A stretch of DNA of 64,000 nt from a virus. Where the stretch lies: positions 1-64,000 of the IMG/VR virus record IMGVR_UViG_3300037069_002825. The stretch is one strand, 5' to 3'. The notes below the pieces were generated by a model. The model was not told the origin of the DNA and did no database searches. It saw only the letters and a list, made by a program, of their open reading frames with translations. Shown piece after piece: positions 33,274 to 61,620 of the stretch. Made by a program: the position numbers and the translations under genes. Every line of letters starts with the position of its first letter. Position 1 is the first letter of the stretch.

Positions 33274-34245
33274 ATGATGGACGGAGACGGCAGTGGATTC
33301 AGTCAGGGCCTCGACGATGATCCCTTCGAGGGCTCGGAGTTCGACGACGAGCTGATGGGCGGCGGCGAGTCGGAGGGCGCGACCACCATCTCGCAGGCGG
33401 CTCAGGCCGCAGTGACGCACCCCGCGCCGGCCGAGGCGGCGCAGCCCATCGCACAGGCCGGGGTCGCCCAGGAGCCGGAGCTGCCCGTCGTGAACAGGGA
33501 GGGCGAGCCCGTCGACCCTCCGATTGCCCCTACGACTGGGGCATCGACTGTCCAGCCTGTCGCGACATCGCCAGCGGCGACTCCCGAGCCGGCTTCGGCC
33601 CCCGCCGATCAGACGGCGCCTTCGAGTTCCGAGTCCCCCGTTCTGAGTGGACCTGGTGAGCCCGGTGAGCTGCGCCGGGAGCCCGAGGAGGTCACGCCGG
33701 AGCGCGCAGCCGAGGAGCTGTCGGTAAACGCGGCGGTCGCCGAGGCACTGGTCGCCGACCCGTCGGAGCCGCAGGAGACGGAGAAGGCCGCCCGTGGTGG
33801 GGCGATGCTGGGATCGCCGGGCGAGCCGGAGCCGGACCCTACGCAGCCTTTCGAGCCGCCGAGCGCATCAGAGCCGACGCAAGACGTGCTTGAGCCCCTA
33901 GAGCCCGAGGACGCAGCGCCGCCGGAGCAGGTGGCCACCAAAGACGGGCGAGTGACGCACAGGCGCTATGTGGTCCTGACCCCAGACAGGGGCGGCGTTT
34001 TTAGGCGCGTCTACTGGTACGAGAAGAATGGCGAGCTGTGCACGCGGGGCACACCGGGAGCGAAGCGCCAGAGCCTCGCGCTTGCGCGAGACGCGGACGG
34101 CGCCCGAGCCATCGCCTACCGAGCGTTGGGCAACGAGGGCCCAGTCGATCTCGTTGCGGTCTCGGAGTCCAACTTCCAGGTTGTGACAGTCGAGCCCGAC
34201 GAACCGAAACCTGCCAAGCGCAAGCTGAAAATGACCCGGCGGTAG
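33274..34245 (+). CDS. Hypothetical protein: acidic disordered N-terminus, small C-terminal domain
   Basis: SD GAGGAG; ORF. Confidence 0.65.
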   Translation: MMDGDGSGFSQGLDDDPFEGSEFDDELMGGGESEGATTISQAAQAAVTHPAPAEAAQPIAQAGVAQEPELPVVNREGEPVDPPIAPTTGASTVQPVATSPAATPEPASAPADQTAPSSSESPVLSGPGEPGELRREPEEVTPERAAEELSVNAAVAEALVADPSEPQETEKAARGGAMLGSPGEPEPDPTQPFEPPSASEPTQDVLEPLEPEDAAPPEQVATKDGRVTHRRYVVLTPDRGGVFRRVYWYEKNGELCTRGTPGAKRQSLALARDADGARAIAYRALGNEGPVDLVAVSESNFQVVTVEPDEPKPAKRKLKMTRR

Positions 34246-34257
34246 GAGAAGAGTCCG

Positions 34258-34614
34258 ATGGCAGAGCAGGTGAAAGCCAACGAGAAGGAGATGCAACTCA
34301 AGATCACGGGTTGCTCTCCCGTCTATTCGGGGAAAAATACACGCGGCGACGACTATACGATCTTCGAGATATTTGCGGAGAAGCCAGACGGCACGCCGAT
34401 AACCGAAAAGCTCAGGGCTTTCACCGCTCTGCCGGTCGGACAGTTCATGGACGTGACAGTAAAAGCCTTCAACAGCGAGGAGCACGGACGCTCCTTCACC
34501 GTCTTCCCAAAGGACAAGAAAGCCAGTGCCACCCAGGCCGTGAACGAGCTGACCGAGATGGTCACCGACCTCATGCGCCGGGTGGGAGAGTTGGAGAGGC
34601 GCGGTGGTGTCTAG
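34258..34614 (+). CDS. OB-fold / SSB-like hypothetical protein
   Basis: SD AGGAG; beta-rich domain followed by coiled coil. Confidence 0.45.
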   Translation: MAEQVKANEKEMQLKITGCSPVYSGKNTRGDDYTIFEIFAEKPDGTPITEKLRAFTALPVGQFMDVTVKAFNSEEHGRSFTVFPKDKKASATQAVNELTEMVTDLMRRVGELERRGGV

Positions 34615-34655
34615 GCGACACCCGTCCGAGTGTCAGTGCTACAGTGTCCGCCGAG

Positions 34656-35264
34656 ATGAGTAACTCGTCGCTTAGCGCCGTCGAGCTGGAGCCCTACGAG
34701 GGCCTGATCTTCACCACGGCGCGCAGATTTGCCACGAGATGCGGGATGGAGGAAGAGGATCTCCGTCAAGAGCTACGGCTCAAGGCGGCTCAGGCGGTGG
34801 TGAAATACGACTCCTCGCGGAGCAGGCAGCCACTCGCAAACTGGGTGTTCAGCCTGATAGTGAATCGGGTGACAGATCTACGGCGCACACACATGCGCCA
34901 AAGGCTGAGCGTGGGCCACATCGAGGATTTCAGGGGTCACAGTAGCGACGGCAGTGATATGGACCTCAGCCAGTTCGAGCTGCGCTACTTTCACCTCGAT
35001 CACGACACCGTCTACGGGCGCATCGATGAGGGCGGGTTCGTAATGCCCGCGACCCTCACCGAGCGCGAGACGAACGTGTTGCGCCTGCTCCTGCTCGACT
35101 ACTCCAAGGTGGAAGCCGCGAAGATCCTCGGCCTCACCGACTGGATGGTGTACGAAGCGGTCGAACGGCTGAGAGAAAAGCTCAGCGACTGGCACCCTAC
35201 CTCACAGCCCGACAACTGTTCAGTTGTCGGGCTGCACGGCGCCGAGCTTCCCGTCGCTGCCTAG
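34656..35264 (+). CDS. RNA polymerase sigma-70 family (ECF-like) factor
   Basis: Region 2 (EDL.QE......YD..R...W....N...D..R) and region 4 HTH (LTERE..VL.L....S..E.A..LG). Confidence 0.85.
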   Translation: MSNSSLSAVELEPYEGLIFTTARRFATRCGMEEEDLRQELRLKAAQAVVKYDSSRSRQPLANWVFSLIVNRVTDLRRTHMRQRLSVGHIEDFRGHSSDGSDMDLSQFELRYFHLDHDTVYGRIDEGGFVMPATLTERETNVLRLLLLDYSKVEAAKILGLTDWMVYEAVERLREKLSDWHPTSQPDNCSVVGLHGAELPVAA

Positions 35265-35585
35265 CTCGCGGCCGTGCAAAACGCCGGCTAGGTAGGAAAC
35301 CAGCATCGCGTAGACCCAGCTCCTGACAGCGCCCTCGGCATCAGCTATCTCCTCGCGAAGGTTCAGATCGGACCTCTTGAACTGGGCCTCGACCGCGACT
35401 ATCAGCTCGTCGAAGCTCTCGCGTGTGGCGAGCATAATCGCTCCGCCTGTGGCGTTGATGTCTACTCCTAGCGCCGCACAGTTGCCCTCCAGCGCCGCGA
35501 GCGCGCTCGCGGCGTCCTCGTTGGACCACATCGGCCATCGCTGGATCTCCGCGAACAGTTCGGCGACCTGCTCCTCGGACTTCAT
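35220..35585 (-). CDS. Hypothetical protein
   Basis: ATGA overlap with the recombinase gene. Confidence 0.55.
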   Translation of the reverse strand: MKSEEQVAELFAEIQRWPMWSNEDAASALAALEGNCAALGVDINATGGAIMLATRESFDELIVAVEAQFKRSDLNLREEIADAEGAVRSWVYAMLVSYLAGVLHGRELGSDGKLGAVQPDN

Positions 35586-40741: not shown

Positions 40742-41386
40742 TTAGGGTTTCACCTTTCTGTACTCCGCGATGCCCCAGACGATTGCCCAGCAGCACCAAA
40801 GATAGTGGTTGTCCCACTCACGCATGTCATATTCGTATGCGTCGCGGATGGTAAGCCGGTCGTGCTCGAACCCCTCCAGTCGTTCGATGGCCGCGCGCCG
40901 GTCACATGGCTCTTCGACGTCAAGGAGCTGTTCCCTTACCGCCAGCCGTAGGTCGGCGACTACTCGCAACCCCGGGTCGCCGGGGTCGCCCTCGTCCACG
41001 CCCTCCCCGATCTCCTCGACCGCTTCCTTCAGCCATTCCTCCACGGTACGCCGATAGGCGTCAACGGTGAACACGCGGGTCGCTGCGCGGTCCGGGCGCG
41101 AGGTGATCTTCTCGGCCCAGTAGTCGGGACTGATGGTGTCCGAACCACCAAAGAAGTCGAACATATCGGGGATGCGCGAGAAGGTGTGATCCTGAACATC
41201 CCCGGCAATCGCAAGGTGCCCGGGCCAGGTGATGATGTCGAAGCCGTAAATGTAAGTGCGCGGTGCCTGGAAGCGAAGGTGTCGGTAGAGGCCCTCGTCG
41301 TGAAGGACGCGCATCTCGTGTTGCTCCGTATCGGCACGGAAACGCTCCCGTGCCACCATGTAAGGGTCACCACCGCCCATCATCAC
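40742..41386 (-). CDS. Conserved phage hypothetical protein
   Basis: H.M.VL.D.G.YRHLRF...FD.ITWPG.L...GD motif. Confidence 0.7.
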   Translation of the reverse strand: MMMGGGDPYMVARERFRADTEQHEMRVLHDEGLYRHLRFQAPRTYIYGFDIITWPGHLAIAGDVQDHTFSRIPDMFDFFGGSDTISPDYWAEKITSRPDRAATRVFTVDAYRRTVEEWLKEAVEEIGEGVDEGDPGDPGLRVVADLRLAVREQLLDVEEPCDRRAAIERLEGFEHDRLTIRDAYEYDMREWDNHYLWCCWAIVWGIAEYRKVKP

Positions 41387-47229: not shown

Positions 47230-47251
47230 GCGAGCACCCGAAGGTGCTCGC
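47230..47251 (-). terminator. C(UUCG)G-capped hairpin
   Basis: Minus strand GCGAGCACC-TTCG-GGTGCTCGC, just after the stop of 47266-47550. Confidence 0.5.
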
Positions 47252-47265
47252 AGTGCGCGAGATGT

Positions 47266-47550
47266 TCAGGATCGAGCCGCGCGAAGCTGCTCGATCTCAG
47301 CGTCTGTGATGACCTGACCGAGGATGGCGGCGCCGACGTAGCCAAGAGGCGTGCCGGTCATCGTGGAACCATCCACGTGAATGAGGTGCGGCGCGCCAGT
47401 CTTGACGTGCACGCCGCGCGTGACGAAACAACCTTCGCCAGTGACCGCGCGAGGCGCGCCGTCGTCAATGCGAAAGGCAGGCGGGCGCCGCGCGACCGTA
47501 AGAAGCTCGGCCACGTGCGATGCGTCGGACTGCTTAGCAGCTGCGGGCAT
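47266..47550 (-). CDS. Hypothetical protein
   Basis: SD GGGAG. Confidence 0.55.
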   Translation of the reverse strand: MPAAAKQSDASHVAELLTVARRPPAFRIDDGAPRAVTGEGCFVTRGVHVKTGAPHLIHVDGSTMTGTPLGYVGAAILGQVITDAEIEQLRAARS

Positions 47551-47587
47551 TGTGAATTGCTCCCGTGTTGGTTGGATGCTTACACAG

Positions 47588-47669
47588 GGGACAGTCCGAT
47601 GACCCAGCCAAACCTTACAGGCTGACACTCGATCCGTTGTAAGGTTCCGAGCGGTCAGCGGACTGTCCC
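47588..47669 (-). ncRNA. Candidate structured leader RNA (three-way junction with 9-bp kissing loops)
   Basis: Pairings read directly from the sequence; see findings. Confidence 0.5.
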
Positions 47670-47792
47670 TTATGAATCACGATCCTCCTACCCCAATCGG
47701 CCGGAGACTACGACGCCACCCACACTCAATCTCATCGGGGTGGACGCAAAGTCTCCGGCCGAGCGGATGGAAAGTCCAACGAGCGTCCATGA

Positions 47793-47821
47793 TTTGACAG
47801 ACGGTCGAATGGTCTGTAGCT
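47793..47821 (+). promoter_or_regulatory. Housekeeping-sigma promoter TTGACA-N17-TAGCTT with an overlapping inverted repeat
   Basis: Consensus -35 and 17-nt spacer; ACAGAC/GTCTGT inverted repeat spans the spacer. Confidence 0.55.
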
Positions 47822-47870
47822 TTCTATCCGACACTCGTCTTACGGAAAGCCAACCGAGAGGAATCGTGAA

Positions 47871-48785
47871 ATGTCCATCCTGACTCCAAAGCAGTGGCGC
47901 GAACAGCGTCAACTCCTCACCCCGACAGAGCTACTCAGCCGCTGTAAGTCGGCGGCCCGCCTAGAGATGCGCGGCCAGATGTTCTCGACAGACGACCGAC
48001 TGGAATGTGCCGCGTCGATCATGGCCGATGGTGTCGCCGAGCTGAAAGGCTCGATGCCACGAGAGGGCGATCAGCGTCACTCGCTCAACGCCTACTGTGG
48101 CCGCGCCAAAAACTACAGGCGATCCATCCAGCGCCAGCGAGACCGCGACGCGGCAGACGCCGAGCGCTGCGCCGATGAGCAGGCCTGGACACTCGATGCA
48201 CTGATGCCCGACTACGGCGTGGACGTCGAGCCTCCCAGCATGGAAACCGCCGCGAGAGCCGCCGAGCACGCCATGCAACGGCTCGACCTGGACGGCGAGA
48301 ACGTCTTCACGCTCTTCTACGGCTACTGCCGAGACCTGCCTGGGCCAGTCGTCGCAGACGAGCTGACGATCAGCGCCAACGCCTATGACGTGCGCTGTCT
48401 GCGCGCCAAGGCGGTTGTGCGGGACGCATACCCGACGGCAGTCGAGTTCCTTGCCGCACTGGTAGGCGAGCCGATCCGCGTCGATGATCCGCTCACCGGC
48501 GAGACAATGCTCCGGTTCTGCCTGGAGGATGCCAGCAGCGAGGCGCACAACCGCACTCACTGCCTGCACCAGCCGTGGCGCGAGGGAACAGATGCCGGCA
48601 GCTGGCCAACACGGCCAGAGACCGCCGATGCTGCCCGCGCCGTCTGTGAGGTGCGCCAGCGCCGCGCCGCGCCAAAGCTCGCCGTCGAGAACATCCGCAA
48701 GGCAACGCGCGGAACCTCGATCGAGCAGGTGCAGGCAGACAGCTTGCTGCGACTCAGCCGCGCGCTGGTCGCAGGGCGCCGATAG
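47871..48785 (+). CDS. Divergent ECF sigma-like protein with C-terminal extension
   Basis: Region-4-like AMQRL.....VF.L.Y.....PVVADELTIS......R..RA; degenerate region 2. Confidence 0.5.
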   Translation: MSILTPKQWREQRQLLTPTELLSRCKSAARLEMRGQMFSTDDRLECAASIMADGVAELKGSMPREGDQRHSLNAYCGRAKNYRRSIQRQRDRDAADAERCADEQAWTLDALMPDYGVDVEPPSMETAARAAEHAMQRLDLDGENVFTLFYGYCRDLPGPVVADELTISANAYDVRCLRAKAVVRDAYPTAVEFLAALVGEPIRVDDPLTGETMLRFCLEDASSEAHNRTHCLHQPWREGTDAGSWPTRPETADAARAVCEVRQRRAAPKLAVENIRKATRGTSIEQVQADSLLRLSRALVAGRR

Positions 48786-61516: not shown

Positions 61517-61620
61517 GCCCATGTGGCGGAATTGGTAGACGCAGCCGGTCTAAACCCGGACAAAGCTCGAAGCCTCCTGGCGGCGGCGACGAGATGTGGG
61601 TTCGACTCCCACCGTGGGCA
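61517..61620 (+). tRNA. tRNA-Leu(TAA)-like, atypical (C33, 35-nt variable arm, no encoded CCA)
   Basis: GCCCATG/CGTGGGC acceptor stem, TGGCGGAATTGGTAGACGC D-arm, GTGGG-TTCGACT-CCCAC T-arm, discriminator A. Confidence 0.8.

Follow-up and report, generated by a model that had tools for sequence, protein, structure and literature searches.

A 92-nt stem-loop on the minus strand, conserved in four phages, precedes the first gene of the leftward gene block of an uncultured soil phage. It is a genuine structure and not a product of chance. The window, the whole stretch of 64,000 nt that was analyzed, belongs to an IMG/VR record with a genome of ~80 kb (79.8 kb; ~91% complete), and its DNA is present in soil-metagenome runs. 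The architecture is best explained by a single rod-shaped stem-loop in three parts, a basal helix, a middle, and an apical helix. By analogy to known phage leaders, we tentatively regard the element as a leader-RNA stem-loop that would act as a double-stranded processing or stability signal, a reading that we hold at somewhat less than even confidence. The parts of the element are listed below, with columns referring to the four-phage alignment A4, in which column c corresponds to coordinate 47675-c:

47583..47674, minus strand: whole stem-loop, columns 1-92, with a minimum free energy (MFE) of -50.0 kcal/mol for the 92 nt
47658..47669, minus strand: 5' strand of the basal helix, columns 6-17, with the always-paired core at columns 9-16 (47659-47666)
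47588..47599, minus strand: 3' strand of the basal helix, columns 76-87, pairing with 47658-47669
47639..47644, minus strand: 5' strand of the apical helix, columns 31-36, CCUUAC, extending to 47638-47646 in the window; drawn as the first "kissing" loop in an earlier reading of the sequence
47613..47618, minus strand: 3' strand of the apical helix, columns 57-62, GUAAGG, extending to 47611-47619; drawn as the second "kissing" loop
47619..47638, minus strand: apical loop of 20 nt, bounded by UUAC and GUAA

The hairpin sits in a 320-bp divergent intergenic region, where it is accompanied by the following features:

47266..47550, minus strand: gene of a 94-aa protein (ATG at 47550), first of the leftward block, conserved and of unassigned function
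47560..47564, minus strand: ribosome-binding site GGGAG of the 94-aa gene, as read from the sequence, outside the hairpin
47697..47762, minus strand: second hairpin of 66 nt (-43.1 kcal/mol, z -6.5), 22 nt upstream of the main hairpin
47794..47822, plus strand: host-type promoter TTGACA-17-TAGCTT of the 304-aa gene, directed away from the hairpins
47871..48785, plus strand: divergent gene of a 304-aa, possibly ECF-sigma-like protein (ATG at 47871) with 13 homologs
47230-47251, minus strand: 9-bp hairpin with a UUCG loop, ~15 nt past the stop codon of the 94-aa gene
47135-47108, minus strand: promoter-like motif TTCCCA-16-TATATT

The element is an imperfect inverted repeat whose arms (47583-47619 and 47638-47674) comprise 37 nt each, are 78% complementary and enclose an 18-nt spacer. 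Its inner 82 nt (47588-47669) fold on the minus strand with an RNA MFE of -46.7 kcal/mol (z -6.1), which none of 200 shuffles equaled. When the whole 79.8-kb genome was scanned with sliding 90-nt segments, this fold ranked ~20th of ~5,300, and its G+C content of 0.58 is among the lowest in the list of the 25 best places that remained once overlaps were merged. The rod of the window phage consists of a lower stem of 4 + 11 + 5 bp, interrupted by two single mismatches, then a 6x6 internal loop, and an upper stem of 9-10 bp. Across the four phages, the basal helix measures 8-12 bp (~20 bp with the two mismatches in the window phage), the middle (columns 18-30) is mostly mismatched, variable and fast-evolving, and an apical helix of 6-10 bp around the invariant UUAC/GUAA closes the 20-nt loop. 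A search of RNA runs for this stretch listed none that contains it. DNA contigs in the sequencing runs are either identical to the window or short unrelated pieces, and the hairpin region shows no variants. Within the window phage's genome, the heptamer CCTTACA is confined to both hairpin arms and one unrelated site at 41359.

Protein searches with the products of the flanking genes yielded 12 homologs of the 94-aa and 13 of the 304-aa protein, and three loci with conserved synteny emerged from alignment-based scans:

L004: a 76-kb metagenome contig
L010: IMG/VR 3300036831_000050, 82 kb
L003/L011: an IMG/VR record of 80 kb

All three relatives have a long hairpin between both divergent genes, separated by 25-48 nt from the ATG of the 94-aa gene. 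The corresponding distance in the window is 37 nt, in agreement with the ~40 nt given by the sequence-only reading, whose claim that a structured element closely precedes the first gene of the leftward block is thus borne out by conservation in four phages. Alignment A4 covers the window, L004, L010, and L003, out of a set that includes ~10 further contigs known from the protein searches to encode homologs; it has 92 columns and not a single gap in the four sequences. Each of the four phages has arms of 28 nt from the CA box to UUAC and an apical loop of exactly 20 nt, while the loop sequence varies. In the basal core (columns 9-16/77-84), 31 of 32 cells are paired, with compensatory changes at columns 9, 12, 13, and 14. 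In the apical helix (columns 31-36/57-62) all of the 24 cells pair; the pairs at columns 31 and 32 alternate between CG, GC, and UA, with both partners changed, next to the invariant UUAC/GUAA. Taken over both helices, complementarity is maintained in 27 of 28 cells at the variable positions, in contrast to the drifting middle. The full symmetric rod of 36 pairs has 75% of its cells paired, compared to 30-41% when the partners are slid by 1-3 columns, and both sides have changed in 14 pairs as against 7.9 in shuffles (1/500). All these pair counts derive from four sequences, too few for formal covariation statistics. RNAalifold applied to A4 returned the same rod, of which the relatives retain the lower and upper stems. 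Because of the compensatory changes, we conclude that selection acts on base pairing itself.

A covariance-model search detected one copy of the element in each of three phage genomes, always in the same place. A dispersed repeat of the REP or MITE type, of which many copies would be expected, was therefore rejected. The basal stem used as an exact pattern had no match, and a degenerate pattern of the whole element retrieved only both known IMG/VR relatives again. One match to the core pattern (L009) lies inside an ORF of an unrelated AT-rich contig and was judged a chance hit from a rough estimate of the collection size. The 94-aa, 304-aa, and MoxR proteins had no match in IMG/VR when each was used as a single query, nor did a scan of the GTDB genomes with both protein alignments yield one. 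GenBank phages and plasmids contained neither a DNA nor a protein match, and thus no cultured phage with the flanking genes. When the whole window was compared to Rfam 15 at gathering thresholds, only a tRNA at 61517-61620 was found and nothing at the hairpin; with E-values up to 10, the hairpin region merely resembled microRNA-precursor models at 16-18 bits, compared to thresholds of 85-150. The earlier statement that the element belongs to no recognizable family consequently agrees with the database search.

According to the sequence-only reading, the region 47588-47669 forms a three-way junction of helices P1, P2, and P3 that is locked by a 9-bp loop-loop helix, can switch to a long rod, and may act as an antitermination element, riboswitch, nuclease-blocking RNA, or ribozyme. 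The strings quoted for it are all found on the minus strand of this region, and the rod that it mentioned as an alternative is in fact both the MFE structure and the conserved fold. The 9-nt complementarity AACCUUACA/UGUAAGGUU is present as well, but instead of joining two loops it constitutes the apical helix of the rod, and the supposed kissing bases are thus part of the rod's best-conserved helix. The bases of the window do allow P2 (6 bp with two G-U pairs) and P3 (5 bp), and the resulting junction is just 5 kcal/mol less stable than the MFE fold (-41.6 compared to -46.7 kcal/mol). However, they are paired in just 58 and 50% of the A4 cells, respectively, and the window alone supplies 11 of the 24 paired P2 and P3 cells. 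Among the relatives, pairing falls to 8 of 18 cells for P2 (44%) and 5 of 15 for P3 (33%), which corresponds to the background of 30-41% obtained with slid partners, although the three central pairs of P2 are paired in 10 of 12 cells. The junction also fails as an alternative fold of the window: with the apical helix forbidden, the 92 nt reach -45.0 kcal/mol as opposed to -50.0 kcal/mol for the rod, and shuffling the loop bases under the same constraint gives -39.9 ± 3.1 kcal/mol, with 41 of 500 shuffles doing equally well. In the relatives, the best alternative to the rod is 10-12 kcal/mol higher and is not a two-hairpin junction. Moreover, in known kissing complexes the loop-loop helix is stacked between two stems. 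A 9-bp kissing helix between hairpins of 5-6 bp could not easily form here, because RNA geometry would place the stem bases ~20 bp apart, yet the junction linker has 2 nt and the 10-nt loop has one spare base.

A true two-state option does occur in L010, which possesses three hairpin arms of alternating orientation. The middle arm can pair with either neighbor, and the two mutually exclusive hairpins, of arm 2 with arm 1 or with arm 3, have similar energies (-50.5 and -53.3 kcal/mol). Nevertheless, given the background-level pairing of P2 and P3 in the relatives, the loop shuffles, the strained geometry, and the lack of an Rfam match, we reject the three-way junction with its kissing loop with high confidence and consider a switch between junction and rod very improbable. 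Nothing supports a ribozyme or a riboswitch.

The leftward block comprises 12.3 kb of the minus strand and encodes the 94-aa protein, a MoxR AAA+ ATPase, a VWA protein, a DUF6744 protein, RuvB, and, at its end, an HTH protein and a tyrosine integrase. The 12 homologs of the 94-aa protein show a mean column identity of 74% and all begin with M-P/S/A. The protein matches no Pfam or PHROG family, and its structure model is of low confidence and has no informative match in the Atlas. The divergently encoded 304-aa protein lacks sequence matches in Pfam, PHROG, and the PDB. Its AlphaFold model (pLDDT 75) weakly suggests an ECF-sigma-like protein, as every one of the best-scoring PDB folds is an ECF sigma factor, although these matches are weak (E 0.04-0.4; best E 0.04, probability 0.95). 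A separate protein with a clear sigma region 2 is encoded at 34038-35264. Where this sigma gene of the plus strand converges with the end of the leftward block, a very strong hairpin with a G+C-rich stem of 12-15 bp (35176-35265; -53 kcal/mol on the minus strand in a 90-nt segment) is probably a bidirectional terminator. The spacer of the promoter TTGACA-17-TAGCTT contains the dyad ACAGAC-N9-GTCTGT, which could be an operator and whose half-site resembles the basal box ACAGUC of the hairpin.

Several other functions were considered for the element and discarded. An intrinsic terminator was rejected, since the region is divergent, no terminator-like site exists between 47200 and 48200, and neither strand carries a run of U after the hairpin. 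Within 47615-47689 of the minus strand, the strong Shine-Dalgarno sequence AGGAGG (47689-47684) is followed by GTG (47680), the start of an ORF of 21 codons that covers the 5' arm together with the loop and has the invariant UAA of the apical helix (47617-47615) as its stop codon. An ORF in L003 ends at the same UAA, but the relatives either lack the window's ORF or have it in a different frame, and L004 and L010 have no ORF that ends there; a leader peptide was thus dismissed. An ECF-type promoter in the arm (GGAAC-N17-GTC) was likewise dropped, as it occurs in the window only and is absent from the relatives.

If the preferred reading is correct, the element functions in single-stranded form, probably as RNA within the 5' leader of a leftward transcript that starts with the 94-aa gene. 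The leader hairpin would then be an RNase III-type target, comparable to those in the lambda N leader and the T7 early mRNA, or a protective 5' structure. The shape of the element, its helix of ~20 bp in the window phage and its position just upstream of an unoccluded ribosome-binding site are observed directly; transcription through the hairpin and the action of a nuclease on it are inferred. As the ribosome-binding site lies outside the hairpin it is not occluded, and a direct block of translation is therefore unlikely. The leader of the lambda PL operon carries a large RNase III hairpin, that of the N leader, and the RNase III sites of T7 early mRNA consist of a lower stem, an internal loop, and an upper stem. 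The element has the shape of such sites, which offer about two turns of helix or this succession of stem, internal loop, and stem. It resembles them further in being a large imperfect hairpin tens of nucleotides before the first gene of a leftward block with recombination functions and an integrase, and in its near-continuous helix of ~20 bp in the window phage. It differs from them in that no sequence relation exists, the basal helix of two relatives has only 9-10 bp, and the fixed 20-nt apical loop has no counterpart; cleavage by a host RNase III is hypothetical here.

The leader-RNA reading is supported by the strong fold, the four ungapped syntenic copies, the compensatory helices, and the single copy per genome in an invariable place. 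It gains further support from the leftward block with its HTH protein and tyrosine integrase, which recalls the lambda PL operon, and from the hairpin after the 94-aa gene, whose UUCG loop is read on the minus strand, that is, the coding strand of this gene. Extrusion of a cruciform from duplex DNA appears unlikely because of the asymmetric 20-nt center and the mismatched middle, which established DNA topology disfavors, and this speaks for pairing within a single strand. The direction of transcription is suggested by the only good host-type promoter nearby: it is directed away from the hairpin, and any transcript through the hairpin would therefore run leftward. Further hairpins directly upstream of the element in all four phages also fit a leftward RNA. 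Less certain is the earlier proposal that the element heads a leftward operon of ~12 kb. It does precede the first gene of the 12.3-kb block, but a single 12-kb transcript is uncertain because of the UUCG hairpin at 47230-47251 and the promoter-like motif at 47135-47108, and the sequence suggests that the 94-aa gene may be transcribed apart from the remaining block.

Other observations weaken the leader-RNA reading. No leftward promoter could be placed in the region, and a -10-like hexamer (TAAGCA, TAGTAA, TAGTGT) directly follows the hairpin in all four phages; if this hexamer belongs to a promoter, the hairpin is not transcribed. Furthermore, there is no strand bias. The earlier reading had considered P2 valid only on the minus strand on account of its G-U pairs, but for the element as a whole the plus strand folds nearly as well (-42.1 kcal/mol, z -6.0, equaled by 0 of 200 shuffles), both strands do so equally well in every one of the four phages, and 5 G-U compared to 8 A-C cells across the four homologs leave strand assignment by G-U pairs without a signal. 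The symmetric invariant boxes (CA..GC and TTAC) fit a protein-bound palindrome as well, and the third arm of L010 together with its copies of the apical box looks like an arrangement of DNA-level modules. This 9-mer, AAGGTTACG, has three exact copies and one with a single mismatch in L010, all within 290 bp of the control region, and none elsewhere in its 82 kb; arms and copies together are found at 2466-2628 and 2776-2784.

Alternatively, the element might be a regulatory palindrome that acts at the level of DNA and controls a leftward promoter, which we regard as possible but rather unlikely. The two boxes of each arm, CA-N4-GC on the outside and TTAC on the inside at a distance of 21 nt, would be bound by a phage regulator, possibly the partner of the ECF-sigma-like protein or the 94-aa protein. 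Like palindromic phage operators, the element lies between divergent genes, next to a promoter, and combines dyad symmetry with invariant boxes at a strict spacing free of indels. The lack of a strand signal, the -10-like hexamers, and the three alternating arms of L010 agree with such a function, as do the four copies of the box in the control region of L010, one of which is located at the -35 position of the likely promoter of the sigma-like gene. In contrast to these operators, however, the hairpin extends over 92 bp with mismatched middles and a non-symmetric center of 20 bp, and its half-sites are 24-27 bp apart from center to center; such a spacing and a 92-bp footprint would be unusual for an operator. 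Its complementarity is kept via compensatory change, and the variable helix positions paired in 27 of 28 cells would be expected to drift if they were uncontacted bases of half-sites. Finally, the boxes occur nowhere else in the genome of the window phage, and extra copies exist in L010 only.

A third possibility, which we consider quite improbable, is a cis-acting RNA for elongation control. The tandem hairpins at 47697-47762 and 47583-47674 would in this case act in a put-like or nut-like manner and allow transcription to read through internal stops of the block. The put RNA of phage HK022, located just downstream of PL, comprises ~70 nt with two stem-loops and is effective over more than 10 kb (PMC9378689). 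Its two short stems form a V and bind the zinc-binding domain of the beta-prime subunit, and put acts in cis without a small-molecule ligand (PMC9378689). Here, too, two adjacent stem-loops head a block of ~12 kb, and in each relative the main hairpin is immediately preceded by a second strong one. These upstream hairpins are unrelated and unalignable in sequence, though, so that of the two tandem hairpins only the proximal one is conserved, and the position of the promoter relative to them could not be located. The conserved 92-nt rod is much longer than either put stem, and neither a similarity to put nor an Rfam match was detected. In addition, a simple scan revealed no convincing minus-strand intrinsic terminators inside the block that would need to be overcome; both strands of the region together had 5 sites compared to 8.8 expected. 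HK022 put is a more distant analog of the element than the sites in the lambda N leader and in T7. In a broader form, the element might represent the central part of a novel phage RNA that acts in cis and sets the fate of the leftward unit with its recombination functions and integrase in a family of uncultured phages, as a factor-independent elongation or processing signal or as a target of the phage's own ECF-like sigma system, with a two-state switch as in L010 in some members; this we likewise deem improbable.

As a leader or intergenic stem-loop with a putative function, the hairpin is of an ordinary type, and the unusual architecture once proposed for it is unsupported. It nevertheless adds a conserved, covarying structured element without an Rfam family to uncultured phages of ~80 kb that have no cultured relative. 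In these phages the hairpin marks the main divergent control region, in which a host-type promoter and the ECF-sigma-like gene that it drives face a small conserved gene led by the hairpin. The element can aid the annotation of such phages and could reasonably serve to seed an RNA family.
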